Shown: positions 13,536 through 63,487 of the stretch, in pieces | Numbering within the stretch: position 1 is the first letter of the stretch | Layout: each line of letters starts with the position of its first letter | Virus record (IMG/VR): IMGVR_UViG_3300019757_000007 | Location: 10,567-74,566 of that record | DNA: 64,000 bases | From: a virus | Strand: one strand, 5' to 3' | Notes under the pieces: model-generated | What the model was told of the DNA's origin: nothing | Database searches by the model: none | The model's input: the letters and a program-made list of their open reading frames with translations, nothing else | Translations under genes and position numbers: made by a program

Positions 13536-13735
13536 ATCGTAAATATACTAACATATTCTACTATTCCCATTAAAATTAGTAGGCATATACATTCTATTGG
13601 ACTAATGTCATTTAAATAATGATTTTCATTCATGAATAGAGCCATAAAGAAGAAAGTTATTATTCCAAATGCGACTATTCCTATTGTTGATTGAAAATAC
13701 ATACCGAAGATATCTCCGGTTAAGAACGCTTCCAT
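13526..13735 (-). CDS. Small membrane protein
   Basis: Two hydrophobic segments; start overlaps the upstream stop. Confidence 0.55.
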   Translation of the reverse strand: MEAFLTGDIFGMYFQSTIGIVAFGIITFFFMALFMNENHYLNDISPIECICLLILMGIVEYVSIFTIWE

Positions 13736-15741
13736 TAGTAGTAGATATCTAAGATATCATTATACATATGAGTAGTTCCTTCGCTAAATTTTGCTTTATA
13801 AACATTTGAAATAGCTCTATTACTAAAGTTATAAAATATTGATAATTTAGGATCTAACTGCTCAATTACATTTTTCAATGCTACCTGTTTAACTATCTCT
13901 TTATCACTATATCTAATTAATAATCCATCTTCATCATAGAATAATAATGATAAAATCATTTCAAAATAAATACTAAGAATATTATTTTGAGTAATTACTT
14001 CTACTAGATTACCATAAATATCGTTAATACTTCTAAGAGCATCATCTTTTCTATTTTTATCAATTAAAGAAACAATTCCATTTAGAATCTTAACAGAATC
14101 ATCATTAAATGGTAATTCATTTACAGTAATAGTTAATACTTCTTTATTATTTTCTTTATCTTCATGTGTATCTAAAGTAATATGTTCTTCATTTGGATAT
14201 TTCTTAGCTAAATAACCTTTGATATAATCTATATCTTCCGGTGCTCCAACTATTGAGTCTCCACCTACTACAGTTGATCTCATAAATATTTTAGATATTT
14301 CTCTATCTTCCTCAGTAATAAAAGCTCCACCAAAGTGATGCGTTCTAAGAACAGATTGAATAATACCTTCCGCAATATAAGAACCAAGACTAGCTCCAAC
14401 ATGTTTACTTGTTGGTTGTTTACTACCAAAACATTTTTTACAAATACCAAAACCATGAGTCTTACATCTAATAGGAGATCTTAATTTAATATCAGTTCCT
14501 ATTAATTCAGTTTCTGTTCCAGTTAATTCTCTTTCTTCTGTTCCAGCATCATACCATCTATATTTTAAAGACATTAGATGATCTTTATCTAAAATAGTAA
14601 ATTTCTCATAACTTTTATTTTCATGAGATATATCTTCTTGACAATCTTCGATATCAATTCTAAAATTTAAAATACCAGTACTAAAGAAGAATTTTCTTTG
14701 TAGTTCTCCACCCTTTGGAATAGCATCCTGTCTTTGCATTAATGCTAGTCTAGCTGAATCTCCAGTACCAAAGTACTCTTCTTGAGTTAATCCATCAAGT
14801 AATGAATTTTCTATATTTCTAGGAAAAGCCTTTCCATAAATATCTGTTGGAATACCTGTATTACTAGCTGCTTTAAGTAACTGAACTGATTTCAGTCTAG
14901 CTCCAGAATCATAAACCTTATCTAGAATATTTTCTTTATCTTTTTCAACCTCTGGTCTAATAAAGTTTTCGAAAAGAACTAGATTTTGATGGAAAGCTAA
15001 ATATGGTTCTACTTGAATCATATTCTTTTTGTATTCCTCAATAGCATCGCTTCGTACACTAAAATCATCTAATTTAAAACTTGGATTACAGCTACTAATA
15101 ACTGTTCCTACTTCTAAAAATAATTTATTTAACTCATGAACCCAATTATAAAATTGATTTTTATCTTTAGTGAATTCGATCTTTTTCCAAAAATCATAAG
15201 TCATTTTCATAAGATTCTTTTTATTTAAAGCTACTCTATTTGTATAATAAACTTTAAATTTATCATCAATATGAACTTCTTCATTATGAACTTCCTGATT
15301 TTCATCCCATTCAGTATCATTTAAACTTCTATTAATTAACCATTCAGTTAAATGAAGACCATCCTCGTTACCTTGAATAGGAAGTTGTTCTATATTAATA
15401 ATTAATTTACCAGCTGAGATATCTTCGATATTAATATATTTTTCTCTTAACTCTGCAAAATCTTTTACAGTTACCTTTGTACATTCATTATTTTCAATAT
15501 TATCTAACATAATTTTTGTATACATATAAGAAGCATAAATACTCTCATGTTCATAACTGAACAGTAAAGAATCTCTATGTTCGAATTCCACTAAATTATT
15601 TACGAAATGATCGTGGAAATCTTCTCTTGCTTGTTTTGAATGAAGTGCGACAGAAATCATAGTATCACCATCATAATCATGGTTCGTAAATTGAGAAACA
15701 TTACTAGATATTTCTTTTACTCTATTTCTTTTTATTTGCAA
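13735..15741 (-). CDS. rpoC: RNA polymerase beta', C-terminal piece with catalytic motif (set A)
   Basis: NHDYDGD (~NADFDGD) at residue ~20, DSGAR, bridge helix GDSARLAL...GELQRK, RSPIRC...GICKKCFG Zn site, trigger loop LRTHHFGG; TTG start with AAGGA RBS. Confidence 0.95.
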   Translation of the reverse strand: MQIKRNRVKEISSNVSQFTNHDYDGDTMISVALHSKQAREDFHDHFVNNLVEFEHRDSLLFSYEHESIYASYMYTKIMLDNIENNECTKVTVKDFAELREKYINIEDISAGKLIINIEQLPIQGNEDGLHLTEWLINRSLNDTEWDENQEVHNEEVHIDDKFKVYYTNRVALNKKNLMKMTYDFWKKIEFTKDKNQFYNWVHELNKLFLEVGTVISSCNPSFKLDDFSVRSDAIEEYKKNMIQVEPYLAFHQNLVLFENFIRPEVEKDKENILDKVYDSGARLKSVQLLKAASNTGIPTDIYGKAFPRNIENSLLDGLTQEEYFGTGDSARLALMQRQDAIPKGGELQRKFFFSTGILNFRIDIEDCQEDISHENKSYEKFTILDKDHLMSLKYRWYDAGTEERELTGTETELIGTDIKLRSPIRCKTHGFGICKKCFGSKQPTSKHVGASLGSYIAEGIIQSVLRTHHFGGAFITEEDREISKIFMRSTVVGGDSIVGAPEDIDYIKGYLAKKYPNEEHITLDTHEDKENNKEVLTITVNELPFNDDSVKILNGIVSLIDKNRKDDALRSINDIYGNLVEVITQNNILSIYFEMILSLLFYDEDGLLIRYSDKEIVKQVALKNVIEQLDPKLSIFYNFSNRAISNVYKAKFSEGTTHMYNDILDIYY

Positions 15742-15753
15742 TCTTTATCCTTT

Positions 15754-16296
15754 TTATTTGGCTTTAGCCTTTTCCATTTTAATTCTTTTTAAAAGAACAT
15801 CTTTTATTCTATTTATATCTGTTGTTTTTTTAGTAGCCAATTCTTTTTTCTCAGCTGAAACTTTATCTGGATGCCATACTTTTAATAATAATTTCCATTT
15901 ATCCTTAACCTCTCTTTCGGTGTAAGGATAGTCTAAATTAAACAATTTTTCTCCTTGTTTAATTTCTTCTATTATATTACCAGTATCCGTTTTTTTATAT
16001 AGTTCCTCGATATGTTTTTTAAATATCCAATTAGCCATATGATTATAACGGAGTTTTTTATATTTATCTCTAAATAAATCTTTATGTAAATAAATATATT
16101 CTACATCATGACCTAAGTCAGTTTCTTCTTTAATTACTGATGCTACCGTTTTAGCTGAAATTATTATTTGAATAAATAACCCAGCTAAAAATCCCCATAC
16201 ATATAACATTACCGTAGTAAAAAAATAAGTTAGTACTGCAAGAAAAAGAATAAGTTTAATATTATCACTAGAATACTTTATTATTTTTTTTAACAT
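15754..16296 (-). CDS. Membrane-anchored J-domain (DnaJ-like) protein
   Basis: N-terminal TM segments; C-terminal WKLLLKVWHPDK (HPD motif). Confidence 0.8.
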   Translation of the reverse strand: MLKKIIKYSSDNIKLILFLAVLTYFFTTVMLYVWGFLAGLFIQIIISAKTVASVIKEETDLGHDVEYIYLHKDLFRDKYKKLRYNHMANWIFKKHIEELYKKTDTGNIIEEIKQGEKLFNLDYPYTEREVKDKWKLLLKVWHPDKVSAEKKELATKKTTDINRIKDVLLKRIKMEKAKAK

Positions 16297-16306
16297 TTCA
16301 ATTCCT

Positions 16307-16582
16307 TTAAATTGCTTTAATTGTTACCTTAGTTAAATGAGAAGTCCATTCGTCTGGAATGTTGAATAATTCTCTTCCTTTTTTAGTAATGTCAACATGA
16401 TTATAATCAACGTAACCTAGATGAGCCTGACCATTATGTCCAAAAATATCAAAGATTTTATCTTCACCAATATATAAATTTTTATTTTTTAATTCTATAT
16501 TGGCTTGAAAATCTCTTAATTTTGGCTCCCCATTAATGGTCTGAGTAATATAAATATTACTCTTTCCATAATTAATTATCAT
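16307..16582 (-). CDS. Hypothetical protein
   Basis: ORF coupled to neighbours. Confidence 0.6.
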   Translation of the reverse strand: MIINYGKSNIYITQTINGEPKLRDFQANIELKNKNLYIGEDKIFDIFGHNGQAHLGYVDYNHVDITKKGRELFNIPDEWTSHLTKVTIKAI

Positions 16583-17444
16583 CTATCTTTCCAGCTTTAG
16601 TAGGTAATATTAATTCTTCTTCTGGATGATTATCATGAAAATTATTTAATTGATATAATGGATCTTCTAAAAATTCTTTCGGATATAACCCATTTCTAAA
16701 CGCATGAGCATTATTTCTTTTTATGATTTTTAAAAAAGCTTTTTCTTCTTTTTTATTTCTAACCGCTACTAATAGACCATTCCCACCATTTAAAGATTCT
16801 TTATCCCAAGCTAAAAAATATTGTTTAAATAGTTTATCACCATCTATAGAAAACCATTTTTTACCATTTTTAATTTCGCCATCTGATACTATAGAATCCG
16901 GTTTAACTTTAACATTATTTTTTGATTGATTAACTTTTTTAGGAGTTCTTTCTTGTTTAATATCTATACAGCCTGTTAAAATTTCTTGAGTAATTAATTC
17001 AATTTTATCCTGCTCTCCATTTGAAATTAACTCTTCTGTCGTACTTTCGATAGTATCTTTAATTAATTCAATTTCTAAGTCAGAAAAACCTAAATTTTTT
17101 AAATGTTTAACTTTTATTTTTTTTGCCATTGTATTTCCTTTTTTATTTTTAAGTTCTTTTGCTAGTGCTTTTTTTGGTAGAGTTCTATGTTCTTCTTCTG
17201 TTTTAGCTTTTAATAAATTAGCATAATTTTGACCAATTTGAGGAATTTTTAAATGTCTTTGAACATCTTCTCTTGATAATAATTTCTTAATGAAATATTT
17301 AGCTGCTTTAACATCTTCGCCTTTTTTAGCTTCTATAATAATATTTAAAAAGCTATCTAAACCTTCTTTAATATTTGCTAAATCTCCATCTACTAATGTC
17401 ATTAAAAACGATAATCTATACTTTAATTTTTCTACTTTTTTCAT
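16572..17444 (-). CDS. Hypothetical protein; possible internal start at MAKKIK
   Basis: ORF with an internal AAGGA-ATG near 17129. Confidence 0.65.
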   Translation of the reverse strand: MKKVEKLKYRLSFLMTLVDGDLANIKEGLDSFLNIIIEAKKGEDVKAAKYFIKKLLSREDVQRHLKIPQIGQNYANLLKAKTEEEHRTLPKKALAKELKNKKGNTMAKKIKVKHLKNLGFSDLEIELIKDTIESTTEELISNGEQDKIELITQEILTGCIDIKQERTPKKVNQSKNNVKVKPDSIVSDGEIKNGKKWFSIDGDKLFKQYFLAWDKESLNGGNGLLVAVRNKKEEKAFLKIIKRNNAHAFRNGLYPKEFLEDPLYQLNNFHDNHPEEELILPTKAGKIDDN

Positions 17445-17445
17445 G

Positions 17446-18930
17446 TTATATTTCCTCAGCTTCTAAAGCTTGTATTTTTGTGTTGTAAATTTTTCTTACG
17501 GCCATTTTCATATTATTTAAATAAATTTTGGAAAAAGCAGAACCTTTCTCTTGTAACGCTCTGACATAATCAGGTGCTTCATTCATTGCTTCGAAATAAT
17601 ATTTTCTGTATTCATCCGGAATACCTATTTCTGTAAACTCAGGTATTTGATAAATATCATCCTCTGAATCCCCGTAGCTTCGAGCTATAGAATAACAACT
17701 ACTACTAAACTTCCATAAGTTAGGTTGTCTTTCAGTAAGTACCCTAAAATCTTTCATTTTCTTTTCTAAGAAGTTTTTAAAATCTTCATCAGGTAAAGTA
17801 ATTTCAAAATTATTATTGAACCTATCATAGATATATTGGATATATTCCACCACGTCAAAACTATTTTGAGAACCATCCTCATCAATAATACTAATCTCTT
17901 TATCTTCATATTCTACGAATAAATATCTTAGTAATTCTGGTAAAAATATTTTCTTAATACTTTCTTCTGGTAAACCTAATTGATATGGTTTTAAAACTGG
18001 ATTTGGAATAATAACAGCTCTCTGACTAAATTCTACTGTTTTTCCAGTTAAAGATTCTCTTACATAATTATCTTTCTTTTGAAAATTAAATTGTAATATT
18101 TCGTGATATACATCATCAATACTTTGCTGATACTTATAAACAGTATTACCAAAAAAATCAGAATTTGTATTATAAAGATTATCAAGAACAGAAGTCCCTT
18201 TGGAAATATTTTTAAGTATTTCAATATAAGCCTTTGTAATTGGATGTGGTAAAATCTTAGTATTACTAATTTTTACTACCTGTCTACTATTTGGAGGAGT
18301 TACTAAAATATAATTTAAGAAAACATATTTTAAATAATCTTCTTTAATACTACCAGTTAAATGATGTCGGTACTTCCATTCTACTGGAATTCCTTCCTCA
18401 GGTGGTTTTGCCATTAAATCATGCAATAAAAAAAACAAGTCCTTTAAGGAATTAATATCAAAAACTGGATGATCAATAAAATCTTTATCACCTTCCGCTA
18501 TTTTAGTACTTTTGATTAACTTATATTTCTTAAGATGGAAATAATAAGGTGCTTCTTTATTACTATTATATGCATGTTTTGATAAAATATTTTTAATACT
18601 ATTATGACCGAAAATATCTTGTAAAGCATTCTTAAAATCGGGGTTTACTATAAAGATACCAGCGGGTAACATTATTTTAGCGAATTGAATATTTCTAGAT
18701 TCATTCTTAGAACATTTTACATTACAGTTTGTACATACTTTACTAGCATTTATTTTGCCAAATACTTTTCCACACTGACATTTATATATCTTTTCTGGGC
18801 CAAAAATTTGCTCCGAATAGAGCCCATCTTTAGTAAAAGTATCATGTTTGTTACTTGTAAAAATACTTGGGTTAGTGATTTCTTCTAAATCGTCGACACC
18901 AGCGTATTCCTTAAAATTAAGTACTATCAT
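17446..18930 (-). CDS. rpoC: RNA polymerase beta', N-terminal piece (set A)
   Basis: DGLYSEQIFGP, Zn finger CQCG...CTNC, VTPPNSR, LTGKTVEFSQRAVI (~LLGKRVDYSGRSVI), ERQPNL (~NRAPTL). Confidence 0.95.
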   Translation of the reverse strand: MIVLNFKEYAGVDDLEEITNPSIFTSNKHDTFTKDGLYSEQIFGPEKIYKCQCGKVFGKINASKVCTNCNVKCSKNESRNIQFAKIMLPAGIFIVNPDFKNALQDIFGHNSIKNILSKHAYNSNKEAPYYFHLKKYKLIKSTKIAEGDKDFIDHPVFDINSLKDLFFLLHDLMAKPPEEGIPVEWKYRHHLTGSIKEDYLKYVFLNYILVTPPNSRQVVKISNTKILPHPITKAYIEILKNISKGTSVLDNLYNTNSDFFGNTVYKYQQSIDDVYHEILQFNFQKKDNYVRESLTGKTVEFSQRAVIIPNPVLKPYQLGLPEESIKKIFLPELLRYLFVEYEDKEISIIDEDGSQNSFDVVEYIQYIYDRFNNNFEITLPDEDFKNFLEKKMKDFRVLTERQPNLWKFSSSCYSIARSYGDSEDDIYQIPEFTEIGIPDEYRKYYFEAMNEAPDYVRALQEKGSAFSKIYLNNMKMAVRKIYNTKIQALEAEEI

Positions 18931-48453: not shown

Positions 48454-48529
48454 TAATGATATATTAATGTATATAATATCATTATATTATCAACAAATGG
48501 ATACTATAATATTATATATGGAGTTAAAG

Positions 48530-48913
48530 ATGAAGAAAATAAATGAATTAAATGTATTGGTAGTAGACGATTCTAAAACAATTTGTAGAATTAATAAAAT
48601 GATAGTTACTCAAATGGGAGTAAATAATTGTGATACAGCAGAAGATGGTTCTGTGGGATTAAAATTATTTATGAAAAATGATTACGACTTAGTACTATCA
48701 GATATTAATATGCCAGTAATGAATGGTTTTGAGTTCGTTGCCGAAATACGTAAAAGAAAATCAAAAGATGAATGTCCGGTATTTATGATTACTACAGAGG
48801 GTGGCAAACAAGAAGTACTTAGAGCTCTAAAATTAGGAGCAAATAATTATTTAGTTAAACCATTAGATAAAGATAATTTAATACAGAAAATAGAAGATTT
48901 ATACCAAGCTTAA
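48530..48913 (+). CDS. cheY: CheY-like single-domain response regulator
   Basis: VLVVDDS, phospho-Asp in SDINMPVMNG, ITTEGGK, GANNYLVKP; start at 48530 after GGAG. Confidence 0.88.
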   Translation: MKKINELNVLVVDDSKTICRINKMIVTQMGVNNCDTAEDGSVGLKLFMKNDYDLVLSDINMPVMNGFEFVAEIRKRKSKDECPVFMITTEGGKQEVLRALKLGANNYLVKPLDKDNLIQKIEDLYQA

Positions 48914-50499: not shown

Positions 50500-50524
50500 A
50501 ATCCCCTTCGGGGATTTCCTGTCG
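50500..50524 (+). terminator. Hairpin + TTCCTGTCG element, copy 3
   Basis: AATCCCC-TTC-GGGGATT then TCCTGTCG. Confidence 0.55.
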
Positions 50525-50617: not shown

Positions 50618-51958
50618 ATGCAGAAATTGCACAATACAAAAATTGAAAATAATCGTACGATATTGGATATAGAAAATAGATTTGAAAGTGTCGGTGAAGA
50701 TGGTAAGTTGATTAGTCAAGAAACTATTAACATGGTAGAACATACAGTACAAGATCAATATCAGGTACTTTCTAAAAATGATTTTGGTAAAACCCCACAG
50801 AGAATTAATATTGGATTTTTTAATAAGAAAACTGATTTTAGAGTATCTGGTAAAGATAGTATAATTGCTTTTAATAAAGAAACGGCAGAAATTGTTTCAC
50901 CAAGTATAGAAGAAATTAAAAATCATCCTTATAGATATTTAATGATTTATAAATATCCTTTCTTTGATAATATTTGGAACGATGAAATAGAAATTAAATT
51001 AGAAGATATACCTAATGATTTTCATAAGATAATTCTAGATGAAAATTTTGGGGAATATTTAGGGAAGTTATTAAAAAAATTAACTCGAATGGTTCAAGTA
51101 GATGGAGTTACTGTAAATGATCTTGGAGTATTAGATATCGATTTTAGAAGACGAAAAGTTCTAGAAACTATTATTCAAGTACAAGGTACTAATAAATTTA
51201 GTATTAATAAAAAGATATTACTTAATAGTAATCCAAGTTTCTTAATGGGAATTCTAGAAGGATTCTTTGATACTGAAAATACTAAATATTTTAATATTCC
51301 AGAAACTATTAATGTATATACTATAAGTACAATATTTAATTTATTAAGTGCTTCATATAGTATTAGATTAAATAGAGAAAATGAAGTTAAAAAAGGTATC
51401 TTTACAGCTAGGTTTAAATTGCCTAATTCATTAAATGAGTTTCCAAATAATTTAAATAATGATATTTTTAGAAAACACAAATACCTATTTTTACCAAACA
51501 AGGTAGGGGAATTTGATAATTTTAAAATTAAATTTTTAAAAGATTCTAGAAATTATATTAAAAATAATACACCAGAAATAACTCAAAAATATATTGAAAA
51601 TGGTTTTACAGAAATGATGTATTTAGTTAATAATGGATTAATAGAATTAATCCCTACTTGGGATTTAGTATTTAATAAAATTCCAGAAGAAGAAGCTAAA
51701 GAAAATATGATGTATGATTTAATTATGGAAAATGATAAAGCTCATAATTTCCAATTAAATAATTTACCTATGTTACATAACTCTGATGGAGATATTATGG
51801 GGGTAATTGGATTATTTACAAAACAAGCTTGTGCTGATGCTAGAAAACATTTCTCTGCTGAGAATAAATTAAAATTTAAAGATCCAGTTAGTTCAAATGT
51901 TATGAACTGGGGAATTAAAACGGATGCCCAAGTTGGTTGGTATAATGCTACAAAATAA
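50618..51958 (+). CDS. rpoC: Split-intein C-fragment (388 aa, degenerate LAGLIDADG domain) fused to a 58-aa RNAP beta' C-extein carrying SDGD
   Basis: Intein block F MYDL...HNF, block G LHN/S, LAGLIDADG-like FLMGILEGFFDTE. Extein SDGDIMGVIGLFTKQACADAR...DAQVGWYNAT aligns with beta' [21 protein letters not shown]...DVVLGLYYMT. Confidence 0.9.
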   Translation: MQKLHNTKIENNRTILDIENRFESVGEDGKLISQETINMVEHTVQDQYQVLSKNDFGKTPQRINIGFFNKKTDFRVSGKDSIIAFNKETAEIVSPSIEEIKNHPYRYLMIYKYPFFDNIWNDEIEIKLEDIPNDFHKIILDENFGEYLGKLLKKLTRMVQVDGVTVNDLGVLDIDFRRRKVLETIIQVQGTNKFSINKKILLNSNPSFLMGILEGFFDTENTKYFNIPETINVYTISTIFNLLSASYSIRLNRENEVKKGIFTARFKLPNSLNEFPNNLNNDIFRKHKYLFLPNKVGEFDNFKIKFLKDSRNYIKNNTPEITQKYIENGFTEMMYLVNNGLIELIPTWDLVFNKIPEEEAKENMMYDLIMENDKAHNFQLNNLPMLHNSDGDIMGVIGLFTKQACADARKHFSAENKLKFKDPVSSNVMNWGIKTDAQVGWYNATK

Positions 51959-52130
51959 AAAAGAAATTGAGAGTTTACTAAAGGATTTTCAAGTTGACTC
52001 AACTGATTTAGGTAAAATAAAAACTGAATTAATAAAAACACAAGGTATTGAGTTTATAGAGAAATATGATATTTTATTAGATGAAATAATACATGAAAAA
52101 TTATATAAAAATAAATTAAGAAGGAAATAA
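51939..52130 (+). CDS. Small hypothetical protein
   Basis: Track ORF 51924..52130; probable start MLQNK near 51945; stop abuts mazG. Confidence 0.45.
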   Translation, partial: GIMLQNKKEIESLLKDFQVDSTDLGKIKTELIKTQGIEFIEKYDILLDEIIHEKLYKNKLRRK

Positions 52131-52131
52131 A

Positions 52132-52779
52132 ATGCAATTAAAAGAATATATAGATTTAGCTTTAAGAACGGAAAGTTCATTAAGCCCATTGACAAAAGAA
52201 GTTGAAGATAGAGGTCTAACGAATAGAACTTTTCATGGAGTAATTGGAGTAAATACAGAAGTAGGTGAAATGATTGAATGTATTGAAAATGGAAAATTTA
52301 AAGCTGATGAACCAGAAAATGCTCCGGACTGGGTTAATTTATTAGAAGAATGTGGAGATGCCTTATGGTACTTAGCTATTAAGATAGATGAGTTATTTGG
52401 ATTAGATTATGATCATTTTCAAGATTCTTTAAATAGAAACTCAGTAGATACTTTAGATAAAAGAACAATAGAAGAATTAATTGAAAGATTAAGATTCTCT
52501 GCTAATGAAGAATTAGATTACTCTAAAAAAGTTATGATGTATGGAAAAGATGATGATAATATGTTAAAATTTCAAAATTGTACTTTCGTTCAATTCTTAT
52601 TAATTATTAGAATAATCAATAAAGTTACTAAAAAAGCTGATAGCATTGAACAAGTTATGAAAGTAAATATTGCTAAATTAAACCAAAGATATCCAGATAA
52701 GTTCTCAACAACAGATGCCGATATTAGAGATTTAGTATCAGAAAGAACTATTCTAGAAAGTTTACCAACACCAGAATAA
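52132..52779 (+). CDS. mazG: MazG-like NTP pyrophosphohydrolase
   Basis: EVGE..E, EECGDALWY, NIAKLNQRYP. Confidence 0.85.
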   Translation: MQLKEYIDLALRTESSLSPLTKEVEDRGLTNRTFHGVIGVNTEVGEMIECIENGKFKADEPENAPDWVNLLEECGDALWYLAIKIDELFGLDYDHFQDSLNRNSVDTLDKRTIEELIERLRFSANEELDYSKKVMMYGKDDDNMLKFQNCTFVQFLLIIRIINKVTKKADSIEQVMKVNIAKLNQRYPDKFSTTDADIRDLVSERTILESLPTPE

Positions 52780-52914
52780 GATAGGAATACCCTATCTTTA
52801 GGCAAGATAATAATGATATTATCCAGTAATATACAACGGCTTCTTTAAGAGCTTGCAGTATAAACAAAATGAAATTTATAAAAAATAAATAATACAAAAA
52901 TTAAGGAAAATAAT

Positions 52915-55900
52915 ATGTCACAAACTAACTCAAATGTAGCTCCAGTTCAAACGGGTGTCCTAGCAGGGACTTCGAATATAAATCTAGAAGATGTACAAAA
53001 TTATTGGAATAAGATAATTAAAACTGAACAACTTCAAGAGGACGAGACTGCAAGAATAGTTTTTCAAGCAAGAGTTAAACCTAATTTAGCAACACAGTAT
53101 GAAAATTTAAAGAATTTTGAAATTACTGAAAGCAAACAATTAAGAACGGCGGTAGATGTTTTTAGTTATATTGAAGAAAAGACTAGATCTTTACCACATC
53201 ATGATGTTGGTATAAGTATCAGTTCAGCCGTTTATAATTACGATCCGACAAATGTTAATGAAAAAGGAAATGTAAAAGCTCCTAGTTATAATACTCTTAA
53301 AAAGATTAATTCATTAGTATTTGATATCGATGCTCACATTAAAGGGTCTAAAGAAAGATTTCATATTTATACTTTAGATGATAAATATATCCAAGTTGTT
53401 ATTCTTAGATCATATATTGAAATTATGGATTTATTAAATAAAAATGGTTGGGATATGCTTAAACCAAGTATGACTTTATGTACTGGTGGTGGTGTTCAAC
53501 TAGCATTTGATTTTGATAGAGACATCTATCCAGAAGAAGCAAAAAATATCTTTACTCGGTTAGGAGATATGCTTGGTAAAAAAGTATTTGGTTGTATTGT
53601 TCAAGATATGCTTGGTAACTTTTCAGAAGTAGATTTAGAAATAGATCCTACATTTAAAGATGTTACTCATACTCAAAGAATGGCTGGTTTAGTTAATCAA
53701 AAATATCAATACACTGCTCAGTACTTCTCGGATAGAGATAATACTACTTTTAATAATGATTTATTTAATTTTGGAAATAGTGAAGAGTACAAGGCATATT
53801 TAAAAACTTTAATTTTAAGTATTGATGAAGATATTCTTAGTACTAATTATGAAGATTCTAAAAAGAAAATATTTGAAGAATACTACAGTACTATATTAAA
53901 AGAAGTTCAAAAATTAAGTGCTTCTGGTCTAGACGCAAATGGTAATACTGTTTGTGCGTTAGAGATGATTGATGTTGATAAAGCAAATGAAGATGCAAAA
54001 ATAGTTTCAATTCAAAAAAGAACTAGTATTAATCCTTCTGAATATAATCCTATGGAATATGATATTATCTTAAAGTTAAAAGAAAAGGTAAATGAAGGTT
54101 TCGATATGAGAACTCTTTTCCCAGATATTACTCTTTGGGAAAATCATGGTTCTTACTATAAAATCTTATGTCCATTCCACGAGGAAAGAACTCCAAGTAT
54201 GGCAGTTTATTTTAATTCATTAATCTTTAGAGATTTTCATGATGATACTAATTATGGTATTGTAGCATTCTGGGAACAGATGTTCAATGTTAATAAAGCT
54301 ACCGCTATTTCTCAAATAGCAGATAAAGCTGGTATCAAATTTAAAAAGGGTGATAAAAAAGAATTTGAGAAAATGGAATTAGCAGAACTTATCGATACTC
54401 TTATAGATAAAATCGATACAGAAAGTTTTGTATATTACAGATTAGCAAATAAAAATAGAAATTGTGTAGTAAGACATATTGATACAGGTGAGAGTTTTGG
54501 TTTCGATGGTAGTAAAATGCTAGCGAGTCATATCTTAAGTAATCAATTAAATATCCACGATGTAGATAAAGAATTTATCCATGAATTTAATGAAGCATTT
54601 GAAAGTAAAATACTTATAGAGGCTTTTGAAGAATTTCATCCTGGTAAACCAACTGTATTCCAAAGACAATTTATCAAATTTGTAAATCTTTGGGTACCAA
54701 GTAAAAATTATAAAAAATCACATGATCAAGCTGATATATTTAAAGAAGAAGTTTGTAAAGATGGTTTAGATATTCCTGCAACTATTGAAATGTTAAAAGA
54801 TAAATGTCCTTGGACTTATCAGTACATCCTACAAATGGTTCAAAGAGGGGATTTAGAATGGTTTGTAAACTGGATGGCAAGTACAGCTCAGTTTAAAGTA
54901 CTTCCAACTATCCCAGTAGTATTTGGTATTGGTGGAGCAGGTAAAAACTTATTTGTAAGTACTATTTTAGAATGGTTTATCAATGGAGAATATGTAAAAA
55001 TTCTATCTGGAGATAGAGTTATGTCTAACTTTAATAGTGTACTAGAAACTGCAAGTTTATTAGTACTGGATGAGGGAGACTTCTCAAGTGGTCAACAAGT
55101 TGATCAGTTAAAATTATTAACTGGTAATGATAAAATGTTAATTGAAAAGAAAGGAGTAGATGCAATATCTAAATCTAGATTTTTTAATATCTTATTTTTC
55201 TCAAATGGTGAAATCCCAGTAAGACACCCAGCGATGGATAGAAGAATATCTTACTTTAATAATGAAGTTACTTTATTAGAATTAGTAGGAAGTATGGGAA
55301 TTACTATAGATCAATTCGTAGCTAATATCAAAGATGAGTTAACTGATTTTTGGGGAACTTTATTATGTACTAATTTAAATATGCCTCAAGGTATGTCTAA
55401 TAATAAAGATGGTTTATTTTATGAGCAAATCTTTAAAATGCATCCATTTGGAGCATTAGTAATTAAGTTATTAAAAGATGAGTGGAAAGAGATTGCATTA
55501 CAGTTAAATGAAAATGTATCTGATCCAACTATGATGAAATCAAATCTGGAATTACTAGATCAAATTAAAGATCAATTCCATCAAAATGGTAGTATTGCTT
55601 TAACACTTATTAATAGATATTTACAATCATTAAATTACAAATATAAAACTAGTATTCAAAAATATATCCAAACAAACGGATTAGAAAACTTTGGTGTTGG
55701 TATCGATATTGTAGCGGATGAAGTACAAATTCTTATTAATAAAACTAAATTAAAAAGTTCTCTAAAAATAGAAAATATTCTATTTAAAGAGAATAAAGAT
55801 TTATCTAAAAAGTTTAATAGAATTAAGAAAGCAATTTCTCGAATGGATCCAAAAGAAATATTATCATCAGAAGATGGTGCATTATCTAAGGATGAAGCAG

Positions 55901-56025
55901 AACATATAATTGAAGCAGAAGAGCAAGAAATTCTATTTGAGAATAATTCAGAAGCTGAGCATAAGGAGCCTTTAGCAGAAGGAACTTTACCAAAGGCTCC
56001 AACATTAAAAACTCCTACTTACTAG
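52915..56025 (+). CDS. Primase-helicase fusion (AEP-like primase + CHC2-type Zn finger + SF3/D5-like helicase)
   Basis: FDID, TGGGVQ, QRMAG; CPFHEERTPS; Walker A GIGGAGKN, LDEGD, FSN, DRR. Confidence 0.88.
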   Translation: MSQTNSNVAPVQTGVLAGTSNINLEDVQNYWNKIIKTEQLQEDETARIVFQARVKPNLATQYENLKNFEITESKQLRTAVDVFSYIEEKTRSLPHHDVGISISSAVYNYDPTNVNEKGNVKAPSYNTLKKINSLVFDIDAHIKGSKERFHIYTLDDKYIQVVILRSYIEIMDLLNKNGWDMLKPSMTLCTGGGVQLAFDFDRDIYPEEAKNIFTRLGDMLGKKVFGCIVQDMLGNFSEVDLEIDPTFKDVTHTQRMAGLVNQKYQYTAQYFSDRDNTTFNNDLFNFGNSEEYKAYLKTLILSIDEDILSTNYEDSKKKIFEEYYSTILKEVQKLSASGLDANGNTVCALEMIDVDKANEDAKIVSIQKRTSINPSEYNPMEYDIILKLKEKVNEGFDMRTLFPDITLWENHGSYYKILCPFHEERTPSMAVYFNSLIFRDFHDDTNYGIVAFWEQMFNVNKATAISQIADKAGIKFKKGDKKEFEKMELAELIDTLIDKIDTESFVYYRLANKNRNCVVRHIDTGESFGFDGSKMLASHILSNQLNIHDVDKEFIHEFNEAFESKILIEAFEEFHPGKPTVFQRQFIKFVNLWVPSKNYKKSHDQADIFKEEVCKDGLDIPATIEMLKDKCPWTYQYILQMVQRGDLEWFVNWMASTAQFKVLPTIPVVFGIGGAGKNLFVSTILEWFINGEYVKILSGDRVMSNFNSVLETASLLVLDEGDFSSGQQVDQLKLLTGNDKMLIEKKGVDAISKSRFFNILFFSNGEIPVRHPAMDRRISYFNNEVTLLELVGSMGITIDQFVANIKDELTDFWGTLLCTNLNMPQGMSNNKDGLFYEQIFKMHPFGALVIKLLKDEWKEIALQLNENVSDPTMMKSNLELLDQIKDQFHQNGSIALTLINRYLQSLNYKYKTSIQKYIQTNGLENFGVGIDIVADEVQILINKTKLKSSLKIENILFKENKDLSKKFNRIKKAISRMDPKEILSSEDGALSKDEAEHIIEAEEQEILFENNSEAEHKEPLAEGTLPKAPTLKTPTY

Positions 56026-56058
56026 GAGTTTAAATTAAAATAATCTAAAAGGAAAATT

Positions 56059-56493
56059 ATGATAACTTTATATTTACAAAGTTCTATGTTCTCTAGAAAT
56101 ATTAAAGAGAATACAAGTACCTGTAAATTATCTTTCAGAGATAAAAATAAAACATATCATAATAAAATATTGGAGGAAGAGTTGTTTCTTCCTTACCAAT
56201 CCGAAGTATCAAATAATTATTTAGAAATAAGCTCATTGTTATTAGGACTTAAGAATATTAATTATGATAATATTAAAAAGCTAAAAGATAGCAAAAAAGA
56301 AATTAAAACATTACGAATAGTATCTAATTATCAAAGTGGTGCTTTCATTAGAAATAGTATTAAACAATTATTTGATAATTGGGAATATTTAGATTTTAGA
56401 GGTGTTCCTTATAAGGAATTATGGAGAGAAATATATTCTTGGATAAATAAATTAAAAGAATATAATATCGATTATATAATAAAAGAAAAATAA
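56059..56493 (+). CDS. RNase HI-like protein, catalytic Asp residues apparently lost
   Basis: SNNYLE (~TNNRME), W...VPYKELW (~W...VKNVDLW); LYLQSS and VSNYQ replace TDGS and TDSQ. Confidence 0.6.
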   Translation: MITLYLQSSMFSRNIKENTSTCKLSFRDKNKTYHNKILEEELFLPYQSEVSNNYLEISSLLLGLKNINYDNIKKLKDSKKEIKTLRIVSNYQSGAFIRNSIKQLFDNWEYLDFRGVPYKELWREIYSWINKLKEYNIDYIIKEK

Positions 56494-56506
56494 CAAGGAA
56501 CTACTA

Positions 56507-57106
56507 ATGGGAGATTTAAGAAGTAATCATTCAGATAAATTTTTTAATGATAGAATAGAAGAGAGTGGAGTATATTCTCCAATGTCCAAAGAAGAAAGAG
56601 AAATGCAAAAAATTTCAGAGGAACCTATTTTAAATATTAGTCCCTCAGCGGATGAGGTACAAAATGAGGTTTCTTTATTAACGCAGGATCTTAATTTTAT
56701 TAAAGAGATGCGACAATCGGCATCTAGAGCTTTAGGAATACCGGCTAACTATTTATTCGATATGGTACAGGAAACATCTACAAGAGTACAGGATACCAAT
56801 GAAAGACTAGATCAAGAGATTAATAATAGAGCTATCTCGAATATAGATATTCATAATGAATGCGTTAGAAACGTGGATAGTTTAACTCCGAAACTGGATG
56901 AAATAATAAATAGAATCAAAAAGTTAGAGAACCGAGTAAGTGATTTAGAATTTAATCCTGCTGCTCCAACTTTATTAGAATATTATTCTTTAGAAGTTAA
57001 AGTAAATGTACTTACTGATGTACTTACAAAAATTACGGAGAATTTACCAGGAGAATTTTTAGGTACTTTTAATCTAAAAGAAAATTTAAAATTTAAAGGA
57101 AATTAA
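56507..57106 (+). CDS. Coiled-coil protein, paralog of 57108..57485
   Basis: C-term KITENLPGEFLGTFNLK. Confidence 0.7.
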   Translation: MGDLRSNHSDKFFNDRIEESGVYSPMSKEEREMQKISEEPILNISPSADEVQNEVSLLTQDLNFIKEMRQSASRALGIPANYLFDMVQETSTRVQDTNERLDQEINNRAISNIDIHNECVRNVDSLTPKLDEIINRIKKLENRVSDLEFNPAAPTLLEYYSLEVKVNVLTDVLTKITENLPGEFLGTFNLKENLKFKGN

Positions 57107-57107
57107 A

Positions 57108-57485
57108 ATGTATACAACTGGAGAGGTTTTAACTCAGACGGAAATAGATCAAATAGTTAATAATGCTGTTTCAGATTTAAGTACTACAGTTAATAATAAT
57201 TTATCTCTGGATGGAGTAGCAGCCGAAGAGAATTCCGGAATTCACTTTACCTCTTTAACTCGAGATAATAGTGTATTAAATACATTACATGTAGATAATA
57301 CGATAGATGTTATTAGACGTTTTAGTGATAGCGTTCATAATGAAACTTCTGATTTAGAAGATAGAGTTCATGAATTGGAAACGCAAGTAAAAAATCTTAC
57401 TGGTATTTTAGAAAAAATAACTGGGTGTTTACCAAAAGAATATTTAGGAACATATAATTTAAAAAACGAACTAAACTTTAGATAA
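57108..57485 (+). CDS. Coiled-coil protein, paralog of 56507..57106
   Basis: C-term KITGCLPKEYLGTYNLK. Confidence 0.7.
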   Translation: MYTTGEVLTQTEIDQIVNNAVSDLSTTVNNNLSLDGVAAEENSGIHFTSLTRDNSVLNTLHVDNTIDVIRRFSDSVHNETSDLEDRVHELETQVKNLTGILEKITGCLPKEYLGTYNLKNELNFR

Positions 57486-57501
57486 AATTAAAGGAAAAAA
57501 T

Positions 57502-57915
57502 ATGGGATTAAATTTAGGCCAACCTAATTATTTAAAAGATTCGGCTGCGATAGCTGGTGGGGTAGCTTTAGGAGCTGGAGCTTTCTTAGGAGCTGGAGAA
57601 GTAATTGGCGATAATTTAGAAACTAATCAAGATAAATTACAAGAGATACAAAAAAATGCTGGTGGTCAAGCTAGTATCAATTTCAATTCAGCTAAACCAT
57701 TAGAAACTAATATTACTTATACTCAAAATGATGGAAGTACGAGTAATTATTCGGCTCGAGAATTAGCTGATTCGACTAGAGAAAAAATTATTAACGATGA
57801 AAAAATTAAAATACTAGATAGTAATAAAATGAATTTAGTTGGAGCGGGTGCTGGTATAGGAGCTGGAGCTGCTGGTATTGGAGTAATTAGTAATAGATTT
57901 GGGAATAAAAGATAA
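57502..57915 (+). CDS. Protein with two glycine-zipper hydrophobic segments
   Basis: AGGVALGAGAFLGAG and GAGAGIGAGAAGIG. Confidence 0.65.
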   Translation: MGLNLGQPNYLKDSAAIAGGVALGAGAFLGAGEVIGDNLETNQDKLQEIQKNAGGQASINFNSAKPLETNITYTQNDGSTSNYSARELADSTREKIINDEKIKILDSNKMNLVGAGAGIGAGAAGIGVISNRFGNKR

Positions 57916-57992
57916 AGTTAACTTATAGGAAGATTAAATTCTTCCTATTTTCTTGTCCAAGAAAAAACATAAAAATAAATCAAGGAATAAAT

Positions 57993-58733
57993 ATGGGATA
58001 CATGAAATTAGATTTATTTTTACAAAAAGCAATTAAAAAACATGGCCTAAATAATTATAATTATAAAACATTAACTACAAAATGGTGGGATATTAATTAT
58101 AAAAATACTAATACTAAAATAGAAGCTATATGTGCTATTTGTAATTATAAAAATTATCCAACTATATCTAATCATTTTTCTAACCCTGGTTGTCTTAGAT
58201 GTTCAGGAAAACTTCCAATAACTAGAGAGATCTTTTTAGAAAGAGTAAATAATATACATAATAATAAATATAAATATAATCTTATAACTAATATACTTTG
58301 GGAAAAAAAAGATAATATTAATATCTTTAAAGTCCCTATCATTTGTGACAAACATGGTATTTTTCATCAAACTATTAATAATCATATGAATATAAAAAAT
58401 GGTTGTCCAATATGTAATGAGTCAAAGGGAGAAAAAGTAGTTCGAGAATATCTAGAAGAAAATAATATTATATTTAATCAAGAATATAGATTTTCTAATT
58501 TTAAAAGATATTCTTTTGATTTTTATATAGAAGATAGTAATCTAGTTATAGAATACGATGGCGAATATCATTATAAAGAAATTAAAAATAGAGAAGAACA
58601 ATTAATAAAAACACAAGAAAGAGATAAAATGAAAAATAAATATTGTAAAGATAATGGTATTAATATCATTAGAATTCCTTATTGGGATATAAATAAAATA
58701 GAAAATATATTAGAGGGGGTGACTCGTGGGTAG
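57993..58733 (+). CDS. Putative free-standing homing endonuclease, same family as 41953..42657
   Basis: CDKHG...H...GCPIC; SFDFY...IEYDGEYH; overlaps the beta'-N start. Confidence 0.75.
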   Translation: MGYMKLDLFLQKAIKKHGLNNYNYKTLTTKWWDINYKNTNTKIEAICAICNYKNYPTISNHFSNPGCLRCSGKLPITREIFLERVNNIHNNKYKYNLITNILWEKKDNINIFKVPIICDKHGIFHQTINNHMNIKNGCPICNESKGEKVVREYLEENNIIFNQEYRFSNFKRYSFDFYIEDSNLVIEYDGEYHYKEIKNREEQLIKTQERDKMKNKYCKDNGINIIRIPYWDINKIENILEGVTRG

Positions 58734-60054
58734 TGCCTTTAATCTTCTAGATGTAAATAAATTTGTAAAAGAAAAGAATAGTAGAGTTATTACGACAAGT
58801 AGAACATTTACTAAAGATAAAGATAATCAAATGGTACCAAATAGTGGTTCGTTATACGATCCAGCCCTTTTTGGATTTACTAGTAAAGATCAATTTGAAA
58901 AGTACAGTTACATTAATTTAAACGAAGTTGTTATGCATCCAGTTATTCATAAGAATATTGGTAAAGTAGGAACCGATTTTAATAAATGTATGCAAAAGAA
59001 AAAGAAATTTGTGGTTCACGAAGGTATTTTAGTTGAATCAGCTGGTGGAGGTAATGGAATTAATTTCATTATTAATAACTGGAATAAAATAAATTTTGAG
59101 AAATACAGAAATGAAAAGAATACTTTATTTATAGATTTTATTAGTAAAACTAGAAAAGATTTACTTACTATTGATAAAGTACCAGTTATTCCTATTGCGT
59201 ATAGAAACTTTACTACTAGTCATGGTATGGTAGAAGAAGATGAGATTACTGATTTATATAAAAAGTTAATGAAAGTAACTGAGAATAAAGATTGGGTAAA
59301 AGAATTATCTGCAGAAGACCAAGATACTTTTGACGAGGTTATTCAAAATATTTATCAGAATACTTCAAAAAAAGATTATGTTCAGAAGTACTTAAATAAT
59401 TTATATACTTACTTCTTAGGTAAACTAGAAAAGAAAAATGGATTCTTTCAAGGTTCATTAATTGGTAAAAGATTAGATAATGTTGCTAGATTCGTTATTA
59501 ACGCTCAACCAGATATCCCATTAGATTGTTGCGCATTACCGTGGCAAGGTCTTCTTAATATATTTGACTTATTTGTAATCTCTTATGTATCAAGAGAAGA
59601 TAATGTAGCTTTAGCGGAAAGTCTAGGTTTAGTAGATGCCTCTGCAGATGAAATTGGAGAATTACTAGCTTATATTTATAAGAATGCTGGTATATATGTA
59701 ACTCATTATCCAGAGAGAGCTAAGATTTGGATAGATCTATTAGCTCAAATTTTTAATGATAATCCAGAGTTAAGAGTACTAGCTAAAAGGGATCCAGGTT
59801 GGAATGATCATTCTTTCTGGGCTTTTAAGCCAATTATTATTACTGATATATCTTATCAAATGATTGTACCCGCTTTTATCTATGCTCCAATAGGAGGGGA
59901 TAGTTTCAGTACTAATTCTTATTTACAATCAGTTCCATCTGAGTACATAGATATTACTAAAGAATATATTATCCGTGGTACTAATCCAAATGTTAATAAA
60001 TTCATATCTAGTAAAGTACTACATGATAGTTTAAAAGCAAAGAGAGGAGATTAA
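58726..60054 (+). CDS. rpoC: RNA polymerase beta' N-terminal piece (set B; 392 aa) fused to a 50-aa split-intein N-fragment
   Basis: SLYDPALFG, PVIPIAYR, LIGKRLDNVARFVI, KRDPGW...AFKP, YAPIGGD then SFSTNSYL (intein block A-like); GTG start with GAGGGG RBS. Confidence 0.92.
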   Translation: MGSAFNLLDVNKFVKEKNSRVITTSRTFTKDKDNQMVPNSGSLYDPALFGFTSKDQFEKYSYINLNEVVMHPVIHKNIGKVGTDFNKCMQKKKKFVVHEGILVESAGGGNGINFIINNWNKINFEKYRNEKNTLFIDFISKTRKDLLTIDKVPVIPIAYRNFTTSHGMVEEDEITDLYKKLMKVTENKDWVKELSAEDQDTFDEVIQNIYQNTSKKDYVQKYLNNLYTYFLGKLEKKNGFFQGSLIGKRLDNVARFVINAQPDIPLDCCALPWQGLLNIFDLFVISYVSREDNVALAESLGLVDASADEIGELLAYIYKNAGIYVTHYPERAKIWIDLLAQIFNDNPELRVLAKRDPGWNDHSFWAFKPIIITDISYQMIVPAFIYAPIGGDSFSTNSYLQSVPSEYIDITKEYIIRGTNPNVNKFISSKVLHDSLKAKRGD

Positions 60055-62081: not shown

Positions 62082-62171
62082 AGAGTATTGTCAGAGTCTG
62101 GTTTATCGTACGTCCCTGCTAAGGACGTGTATCGAAAGGTACCACTGGTTCAAATCCAGTATACTCTGCCA
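62082..62171 (+). tRNA. tRNA-Ser(GCT)
   Basis: Acceptor AGAGTAT/ATACTCT, anticodon arm CGTCC-CTGCTAA-GGACG, long variable arm, GCCA end. Confidence 0.92.
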
Positions 62172-62190
62172 AAAAAAAGGAATTGTAATT

Positions 62191-62427
62191 ATGGGTAGAT
62201 ATTATGCAGAAGATTTATTTACAGGTTTAGAGTTCGATAAAATATATAAAAATGTTGATAGAGTAACTCAAGAAATATTTTCATGTTCGAATAATACAAA
62301 CAAACTAAATATTATCAAAGCAAATAATTTAGAAGACTTATGTTCTAAAATAATTAATTGCAATACAAAAATACAAATTAATGATATAGTTCAAAGAAGA
62401 TTTGAAGAATTATATATTTTAAATTAG
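62191..62427 (+). CDS. Small hypothetical protein in the tRNA cluster
   Basis: ORF with AAGGA RBS. Confidence 0.55.
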   Translation: MGRYYAEDLFTGLEFDKIYKNVDRVTQEIFSCSNNTNKLNIIKANNLEDLCSKIINCNTKIQINDIVQRRFEELYILN

Positions 62428-62502
62428 GGGAATTAGCTCAGTTGGGAGAGCAATACATTTGCAATGTATAGGTCAACGGTTCGGATCCGTTATTCTCCAC
62501 CA
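62427..62502 (+). tRNA. tRNA-Ala(TGC)
   Basis: GGGGAAT/ATTCTCC with G3:U70, anticodon TGC, ACCA end. Confidence 0.95.
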
Positions 62503-62612
62503 AATACCGAACCTATTGATTTAGGATAAATTCTAGATATATTTAAAGGAAAATAAATGTATAAGTTTACAAATAAAGGTGCTAAATTTTAACTTTCTTC
62601 AAAGGAGTTAAA

Positions 62613-62795
62613 ATGAAAAAAGCATATAAATTAAGTAAAGAAACTAGTAACAATAGAGAATATAAATCTACTATGAAACATTATAGAAGACTATGTCCAT
62701 ATTGTAAACCACATCAAGGTTGTAATAAGAATCCAAACATGGATCATAAATCTTGGAAAACATATAGAAAAACTCAATATAGATATCTAAATTGA
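62613..62795 (+). CDS. Small basic protein with CPYC motif
   Basis: ORF with AAGGAG RBS. Confidence 0.55.
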   Translation: MKKAYKLSKETSNNREYKSTMKHYRRLCPYCKPHQGCNKNPNMDHKSWKTYRKTQYRYLN

Positions 62796-62801
62796 GTAAA
62801 T

Positions 62802-62875
62802 TCCCGAGTAGCTTGAAGGTCAAGCAGCTGACTGTTAATCAGAAGTCAAAGTTTCGATTACTTTCTTGGGAGCCA
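62802..62875 (+). tRNA. tRNA-Asn(GTT)
   Basis: TCCCGAG/CTTGGGA, anticodon loop CTGTTAA, GCCA end. Confidence 0.88.
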
Positions 62876-62888
62876 TAAAATATTCAGA

Positions 62889-62959
62889 TGGGGATTCGCC
62901 AAGTGGTAAGGCAGTAGCTTTTGGCGCTACCATCATAGGTTCGAATCCTATATTCCCAT
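62889..62959 (+). tRNA. tRNA-Gln(TTG), atypical: no encoded CCA, extended acceptor stem
   Basis: TGGGGAT/ATTCCCA, GTAGC-TTTTGGC-GCTAC, T-arm GGTTCGAATCC. Confidence 0.8.
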
Positions 62960-62979
62960 CTGAGTATTTAATACATGTT

Positions 62980-63155
62980 AGTACGCTTCTAAACAGCAGA
63001 GGCTAACTATTGTTGGAGTAGTTAGAAACTCGCGAATGACGGTCAAGGGATGAAGAAAGTGATTTTCATTAGTATTCCAATAAATAGGTCCATCACCTTG
63101 AAAGAATTAGTACCACTGTCCAAATCTAATTCATACATTATTGACTAGAAGTATC
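62980..63155 (+). ncRNA. Candidate structured ncRNA between tRNAs
   Basis: Helices CTAACTA/TAGTTAG, TCAAGG-GATG/CATC-A-CCTTGA, GAATTAG/CTAATTC, possible closing CTTCTA/TAGAAG. Confidence 0.45.
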
Positions 63156-63242
63156 TTCAGTCCTTTGTCTTTAAAAAGAAATAATATTATCAGAAAATAT
63201 TATAAATATCTTAGAATATAAAATATCTTAAGGTATTCATAA

Positions 63243-63320
63243 AGCGGAATAGAGAAGTTTGGTCGTCTCGCTAGGCTCATAACCTAGAGATCGCTGGTTC
63301 AAATCCAGCTTCCGCAACCA
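63243..63320 (+). tRNA. tRNA-Met(CAT), initiator-like
   Basis: A1:A72 mismatch, CTAGG-CTCATAA-CCTAG, ACCA end. Confidence 0.9.
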
Positions 63321-63326
63321 ATAAAT

Positions 63327-63403
63327 TGTCCTATAGCTCAGTCGGTTAGAGCGTTTGCCTGATAAGCAAAAGGTCGATAGTTCAAGTCTATCTAGGACAA
63401 CCA
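63327..63403 (+). tRNA. tRNA-Ile(GAT)
   Basis: TGTCCTA/TAGGACA, anticodon loop CTGATAA, ACCA end. Confidence 0.95.
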
Positions 63404-63411
63404 AAATAAAT

Positions 63412-63487
63412 GCTTCAGTAGCTCAGTTGGTAGAGCAGAATACTTGTAATGTTCAGGTCGTAGGTTCAAGTCCTATCTGAAGCTCCA
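63412..63487 (+). tRNA. tRNA-Thr(TGT)
   Basis: GCTTCAG/CTGAAGC, anticodon loop CTTGTAA, TCCA end. Confidence 0.95.

Follow-up and report, generated by a model that had tools for sequence, protein, structure and literature searches.

How can a phage build an active RNA polymerase when the catalytic loop of the enzyme is divided between two distant genes? This question is raised by a locus of an uncultured jumbo phage from a microbial mat, contained in bases 10567-74566 of the 74.5-kb viral record IMGVR_UViG_3300019757_000007; this stretch of 64,000 nucleotides, analysed at its full length, is called the window, and positions are counted from its first base. In the window, the gene for the N-terminal part of the RNA polymerase beta' subunit (beta'-N) departs from the canonical sequence between the first and second catalytic aspartates, and the remaining part of the loop is found at the end of an upstream gene, after an intein-like sequence. 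In this study, we propose that a class 1 cysteine-less intein (Ser1/Ser+1) lies between the first Asp and xDGD, that it is split about 50 residues after its start and encoded in swapped gene order with a primase gene in between, and that trans-splicing of the two products would yield a 450-amino-acid (aa) beta'-N. We place the probability of this reading at about 0.78.

Complementary parts of beta'-N in two open reading frames

The open reading frame (ORF) at 58726-60054 encodes 442 aa and matches beta' chains of the PDB (8dkc_D, E-value 6.5e-9; 7s00_d of Bacillus phage AR9, 6.6e-5). Its top tblastn matches are virion-type beta'-N proteins of AR9-like jumbo phages, such as AR9 g145, and by sequence the host subunit is most similar to the virion-type polymerase of these phages. 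The codon of its first catalytic residue, D392, occupies 59899-59901 and is followed by a short tail. The second ORF, at 50618-51958, encodes 446 aa, in which the sequence MYDL..HNF..LHN ends with N388 (codon 51779-51781) and is directly followed by SDGDIMGV...GWYNATK. The junction codons are 8.1 kb apart on the same strand, with the C-terminal part upstream, and the ORFs themselves are separated by 6.8 kb. A preliminary description, drawn from the letters of the window alone, had given the coordinates and motifs of both ORFs and a reversed order with halves about 8 kb apart; recomputed ORF and codon positions agree with it throughout.

The three aspartates of the loop bind the catalytic Mg2+, and inteins require Cys, Ser or Thr at position +1, which is Ser here. 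When residues 1-392 are joined to the last 58 residues of the upstream product, its alignment with the contiguous rpoC1 (503 aa) of Listeria phage LPJP1 runs through the junction (PIGGD/SDGDIM against ALGADYDGDTL, the slash marking the junction). The 58-aa segment alone aligns with the last 55 residues of LPJP1 rpoC1 (GADYDGDTL...YTLTK), and the two proteins share their C-terminus, YTLTK in LPJP1 and YNATK in the joined product. The joined protein has 450 aa, against 448 aa in AR9 7s00_d and 503 aa in LPJP1. Because the joined product aligns across the junction and ends where LPJP1 rpoC1 ends, the 58-aa piece is the missing end of beta'-N, as the preliminary description had supposed, and the two extein parts complement each other exactly. 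The shared C-terminus coincides with the place, after the double-psi beta-barrel, where beta' of jumbo phages is usually split (PMC7598289).

The same description had stated that no other DxDGD occurs in the plus-strand RNA polymerase genes. A six-frame scan of the whole 74.5-kb record revealed no second xDGD catalytic loop on the plus strand, in agreement with this statement; the minus strand does hold a DYDGD, in the loop NHDYDGD (window position ~15678), which is part of a paralogous second RNA polymerase with its own N-terminal partner. An intact second copy of the beta' segment, which would have spoken against the proposal, is absent from two nearly complete relatives (100 and 97% complete; 281 and 272 kb), each of which has one beta'-N and one copy of the C-extein, located at the end of the ORF for the C-terminal intein fragment (IntC).

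Intein fold of the C-fragment and predicted docking of the halves

Searches of Pfam, PHROGs and PDB sequences with the 446-aa ORF of the window gave no intein match, and the fold was recognised from structure. The AlphaFold2 (AF2) model of the 446-aa protein, built with 21 homologs, has a mean predicted local distance difference test score (pLDDT) of 75.5. All 16 of its Foldseek matches at E <= 0.001 are endonuclease-bearing inteins, including TliVMA (7qss, 5.8e-9), PI-SceI and PI-PfuI. In VIA-align, model residues 20-388 were superposed on PI-SceI 25-454 (Z 12.0, root-mean-square deviation (rmsd) 4.5, 266 residues aligned), and against mini-inteins (Z 8-10) residues 16-390 covered the span from mini-intein residue ~12 to the last. 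These spans place N388 on the terminal Asn of inteins and leave only the first strands absent from IntC, which lacks about 12-25 N-terminal residues. The early suspicion that the 388-aa part is intein-like was thus borne out, with a combined intein and homing-endonuclease fold. The N-terminal fragment (IntN), at 50 aa, is much shorter than IntC, at 388 aa.

The endonuclease part, IntC 138-282, aligns with the LAGLIDADG enzyme I-DmoI (VIA-align Z ~6, rmsd 3.4-4.9, 113-121 residues aligned). Its catalytic acids are not conserved: among the 65 relatives described below, a conserved acidic residue is missing from motif 1, and just 30 of them have Glu or Asp in motif 2. The embedded domain is therefore probably without nuclease activity, and the element is probably fixed and vertically inherited.

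Complex prediction with IntC 1-400 and the beta'-N tail 378-442 gave a median interaction prediction score from aligned errors (ipSAE) of 0.88, compared with 0.00 for the best of three controls. Of 80 solved complexes, 58 attained this value, as did two of 110 mismatched pairs; these counts hold only roughly here because our own alignments were used. At least 77% of the contacts were common to the runs, the partner pLDDT was at least 74, and the interface comprised 193-225 contacts. In the predicted complex, IntN 394-397 pair with IntC 73-76, while IntC 41-42 and 386-389 contact IntN 390-404, which puts block A next to block B and the C-terminal junction in the usual way. The pair behaves in prediction as the preliminary description had anticipated, with the 50-aa tail docked on IntC and Ser1 beside the C-terminal junction. 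Since structures of split inteins exist, this docking result is to be read as likeness to solved split inteins rather than as proven binding.

Conservation, alleles and alternatives to trans-splicing

Homologs were collected from JGI, ENA, NCBI and Logan as 55 beta'-N clusters, down to 29% identity, and 65 full-length C-fragment clusters; a profile search for the C-fragment among 1.84 billion representatives gave 73 proteins. All strong C-fragment matches are stand-alone proteins of 333-466 aa, and a fused form occurs in only three of the 73 representatives, with a mini-intein. Every one of the 55 beta'-N proteins has the junction P[IL]GGD/S, continued as GGD/S[FLMI]x[ST] and a tail of 35-90 aa, and none has a contiguous catalytic loop. 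Y386, P388, G391, D392 and S393 are invariant in the beta'-N set, as are H42, D367, N388, S389, D390, G391 and D392 in the C-fragments; H42, D367, N388 and S389 are thus conserved as strongly as the catalytic DGD itself. S81 and N377 are each present in 64 of 65. Recognised junctions are N/SDGD in 57 of 58 cases and N/TDGD in the other, and the C-extein is 56-62 aa long in nearly all representatives. With the similarity of beta'-N to solved chains, the fit of the exteins and two conserved families, the pattern is not due to chance.

The gene order is conserved as well. In ten IMG/VR loci at 30-40% identity, the IntC gene is followed by the primase, beta'-N and beta'-C genes, and the primase has the identical position in all ten. 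Across these loci, Ser1 is encoded by AGT, AGC, TCG or TCA and Ser+1 by TCT, TCA, TCG or AGT. These loci were found with an alignment as query; a single beta'-N sequence as query found none of them, and the 446-aa ORF had no tblastn match in the phage collection. Judged from the sequences, the swapped two-gene layout is recurrent and conserved across a large set of jumbo-phage loci. A decayed or mis-assembled locus, in which a broken beta' gene stands beside an intein remnant or a metagenomic contig is chimeric, might be suspected in a 74.5-kb metagenomic fragment whose completeness is estimated at about 27% (CheckV). Both ORFs are intact, however, the order and junctions are repeated in ten independent IMG/VR contigs and dozens of protein clusters, and the stretch is present in three DNA runs of three studies, labelled microbial mat metagenome; the 446-aa protein is additionally recorded on a 224.7-kb contig. 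We consider this explanation very improbable, and the recurrence of the layout in independent contigs excludes an assembly artefact.

Other alleles interrupt the same loop. As the preliminary description had proposed for a comparison with related phages, cis-intein alleles exist at the same site: in P0140, P0141 and P0142 (604-632 aa), a contiguous beta'-N is interrupted at the identical position by an insert (179-205 aa) bounded by GGD/C...CN/SDGD, GGD/C...KN/SDGD and GGD/T...CN/SDGD, respectively (Cys1 or Thr1, terminal Asn, Ser+1). The C-terminal intein lobe and extein of these cis alleles match the IntC family in hhalign with a probability of 97.4%, and the block B His is likewise absent from them. 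The intein nature of P0140 is drawn from its motifs and hhalign; its AF2 model, built on a three-row alignment, had a pLDDT of 41.6 and was left unused. P0134 is a 249-aa endonuclease-less split C-fragment at an N/TDGD site with an intact SEDHS block B. P0143, a 1170-aa fused beta', has a LAGLIDADG intein after DFDGD that ends in Asp before Thr+1, and P0144 is a 251-aa split C-fragment at this second site, after DFDGD.

In the virion polymerase beta'-N gene of AR9 (KU878088, 118000-123300), the second group I intron splits the loop codons, with GGDYD at the end of exon 2 and GD at the start of exon 3, and carries the Hef-like endonuclease g146. Since intein alleles and this intron all interrupt it, the DNA coding for the loop is a repeated target of homing elements. 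The AR9 intron, which breaks the same codons, also brings to mind a joining of the two parts at the RNA level, through trans-splicing of split group I or group II introns. An Rfam search of 49.5-61.5 kb was empty even with E-values up to 1 allowed, and the extra sequences are in frame, translated, intein-folded and conserved as protein, which makes such joining extremely unlikely, the least probable of the explanations that we weighed.

According to the trans-splicing model, the two proteins would associate via their intein fragments, Ser393 would attack the carbonyl of Asp392, and the ester would then be passed to Ser389. Asn388 would cyclise, and the end products would be a 450-aa beta'-N with GGD-SDGD and a free two-chain intein. 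With Ser at both 1 and +1, the intermediates would be oxyesters. Blocks F and G are present in the window (MYDL...HNF...LHN). A comparable Ser1/Ser+1 intein, the atypically split PolB16 OarG from a sheep-gut metagenome, splices without needing the block B His (Pasch et al., 2023; PMC10189870). What it needs instead is the His of motif NX, a residue that Ser1 inteins conserve and that follows an Arg or Lys (PMC10189870).

Several points weigh against this model, in which splicing itself is what we infer. The block B His is lost: the window has S77-G-K-D80 at this position, which was set by comparison with SEDHS/SNDHS in P0134, P0143 and P0144, and His is found in only eight of 65 relatives and absent in 57. 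The penultimate His is present here and replaced by Lys in 49 of 65. H42 is a candidate for the motif NX His from its sequence pattern and its membership of the predicted IntN interface; the residue before it is Lys in 26 of 65 and Glu here, and a conserved Tyr stands six residues after it, as in P0134 and P0143. Pfam intein models match only two of 21 family members, and profile searches against PDB sequences yield no intein, just one spurious match. Finally, the other polymerase of this phage is split plainly, without an intein, 21 aa before the catalytic loop.

This second polymerase, on the minus strand, speaks for the main rival explanation, non-covalent assembly, in which the intein fragments would form a permanent docking module or only cleave, and the loop would be built from two unligated chains. 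Its beta'-C begins 21 aa before NHDYDGD, and its 668-aa part is a loop segment fused to the usual beta'-C, so that the split falls inside the double-psi beta-barrel, in contrast to the jumbo-phage split after the barrel (PMC7598289). This start of beta'-C is alike in 13 relatives, and a non-covalent barrel is evidently tolerated in this lineage. Three ORFs separate the halves; one of them, at 15754-16296 (minus strand), encodes a protein that is hydrophobic near its N-terminus and contains the J-domain-like motif KVWHPDK. Loss of most block B and penultimate His residues and the large predicted interface would also suit mere docking. On the other side, 55-65 diverged clusters all have N388, S389, S393, D367 and H42 despite turnover of synonymous codons, including TCN/AGY, and none of these residues would be needed by a clamp. 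An unspliced intein of ~440 aa would stay wedged in the Mg2+ loop, and the cis inserts at the same site must be excised for the enzyme to work. We therefore regard non-covalent assembly as unlikely, and trans-splicing remains our preferred explanation.

A stronger form of the trans-splicing model can be imagined, in which splicing is an obligatory, timed maturation step, the nuclease-dead LAGLIDADG domain has taken on another function, such as binding DNA or helping to assemble the polymerase, and the Ser/Ser chemistry proceeds without a block B His. The gene for IntC and the catalytic piece is located with the primase, away from the beta' genes, so that polymerase activity could be withheld until both products have been made. 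We hold this extension to be speculative and rather doubtful; a switch on polymerase activation, which the preliminary description had put forward as a possibility, is likewise speculative.

Phage setting and comparison with known systems

The record has a G+C content of 24-31% and a strand switch at ~42 kb, and, as in AR9-like jumbo phages, its split beta and beta' genes come in two sets (Table 1). Megablast of the region against the phage collection gave no match, and no close relative was found among deposited phages; the nearest at the protein level are Listeria phage LPJP1, Staphylococcus jumbo phages and Bacillus phage AR9, at ~25-28% identity.

Table 1. Features of the intein-bearing locus and its surroundings in the window.
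Feature	Position	Strand	Evidence or details
N-extein, beta'-N residues 1-392, ends PIGGD (first catalytic Asp)	58726..59901	+	8dkc_D, 7s00_d, phrog_2986
IntN, S393-D442, 50 aa and stop; Ser1, block-A-like strand SFSTNSYL	59902..60054	+	conserved S393, predicted docking
IntC, 388 aa: rest of N-lobe, LAGLIDADG domain, blocks F and G	50618..51781	+	fold match, conservation
IntC landmarks			H42; block B position S77-D80-S81; LAGLIDADG ~138-285; MYDL D367; LHN388
C-extein, 58 aa (SDGD...YNATK) and stop; second and third catalytic Asp, end of double-psi beta-barrel	51782..51958	+	LPJP1 alignment
beta'-C of polymerase no. 1, 423 aa	60056..61327	+	phrog_2962 (4.6e-22), phrog_3015
beta-like subunit, 1041 aa	42651..45776	+	phrog_3148, 7.4e-44
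Primase-helicase, 1036 aa, between both intein-bearing genes	52915..56025	+	Pfam DUF5906, Zn_ribbon_DnaG
Free-standing homing endonuclease, 246 aa, overlaps beta'-N start by 8 nucleotides	57993..58733	+	phrog_559 6.1e-51; Pfam DUF559, RAP, treble-clef finger
Polymerase no. 2	13735..18930	-	beta'-N 17446-18930 (494 aa, no catalytic loop); beta'-C 13735-15741 (668 aa)

The beta-like subunit is the likely partner of polymerase no. 1. The beta'-C ORF, which follows beta'-N in eight related loci, scored 21.0 bits with Pfam RNA_pol_Rpb1_5 and 14.4 bits with Rpb1_4, both below the gathering cut-offs. The free-standing endonuclease has zinc fingers and a DUF559/Vsr-like domain; copies of this phrog_559 type in relatives (L002, L003, L007, L008, L010) lie between the IntC gene and the primase or after beta'-C, sometimes several per locus. 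The IntC gene is separated from the preceding ORF by a perfect G+C-rich hairpin at 50500-50516 (AATCCCC-TTC-GGGGATT), and a terminator-like hairpin at 57925-57948 is located upstream of the endonuclease and beta'-N genes; together they suggest separate transcription units. Sigma-70-type promoter-like sites were not enriched (65 found, 75 expected from shuffles), and neither was the AR9-like AT-rich motif upstream of the IntC gene (13 found, 21 expected). The plus strand also has a cluster of seven tRNA genes at 62082-63487 (Ser, Ala, Asn, Gln, Met, Ile, Thr) and an ORF at 48467-48913 whose DD...D...KP pattern resembles, by eye, that of a CheY-type receiver domain, something unusual for a phage.

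Split inteins, inteins with a short IntN and cysteine-less inteins are already known. What is new is the site and host protein, an IntC with a whole LAGLIDADG domain, the conserved swapped order and the near-complete loss of the block B His. Full-text literature searches, whose coverage did not extend to subscription journals, brought up no article that describes an intein lodged in the catalytic loop of a phage RNA polymerase, and we know of no natural split intein with an embedded endonuclease that has been described. If our model is true, the universally conserved Mg2+ loop of multisubunit RNA polymerase can be built post-translationally from two gene products, in an arrangement maintained across a large jumbo-phage clade, and a split intein can retain an entire endonuclease domain in one fragment. 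On the side of annotation, it would account for the apparent lack of a catalytic loop in one polymerase of these phages, and protein engineering would gain a naturally occurring, varied family of inteins that are cysteine-less, split atypically and active without the block B His.

The proposal has a precedent in the cyanobacterial DnaE split intein, where an essential catalytic subunit of a polymerase is likewise trans-spliced from the products of two distant genes. DnaE is split in the typical manner (IntN ~100-120 aa, IntC ~36 aa), has Cys1 and Cys+1 and no endonuclease, and is located away from metal-binding residues. Two of the PDB matches of the IntC model, 4kl5 and 1zd7, are presumably structures of the DnaE split intein. 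PI-SceI/VMA, TliVMA and PI-PfuI are the best structural matches over Hint and LAGLIDADG together, with their terminal Asn aligned with N388. These inteins are contiguous and have Cys1, a block B His and an active nuclease, whereas the intein proposed here is split, has Ser1 and does not conserve the LAGLIDADG acids.

Fractured genes of phages and metagenomes are broken by a split intein, and their halves are neighbours in N-to-C order with a free-standing endonuclease gene between them (Dassa et al., 2009; PMC2677866). Our locus is similar in that a split intein breaks a gene with homing endonuclease genes nearby, and different in its swapped order, the primase between the halves, the LAGLIDADG domain inside IntC and the location of the free-standing endonuclease elsewhere. 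The intron of AR9 g145 (KU878088) is an endonuclease-carrying mobile element in the loop codons of the same gene family, at nearly the same site; unlike the split intein, it is removed as RNA and leaves its exons colinear.

PolB16 OarG is similar in its atypical natural split with IntN shorter than IntC, its Ser1 and Ser+1, its phage-type polymerase host gene and a His upstream of block B (motif NX there, H42 here); it can also do without the block B His, which most members of the family described here lack. Its host is a PolB DNA polymerase, and its fragments are adjacent, with an IntN of 15 aa and an IntC of 168 aa without endonuclease. In our phage, by contrast, the IntN has 50 aa, the IntC, of 388 aa, includes an entire LAGLIDADG domain, the two genes are in swapped order ~7 kb apart, and the product that splicing is predicted to complete is the Mg2+ loop of an RNA polymerase.

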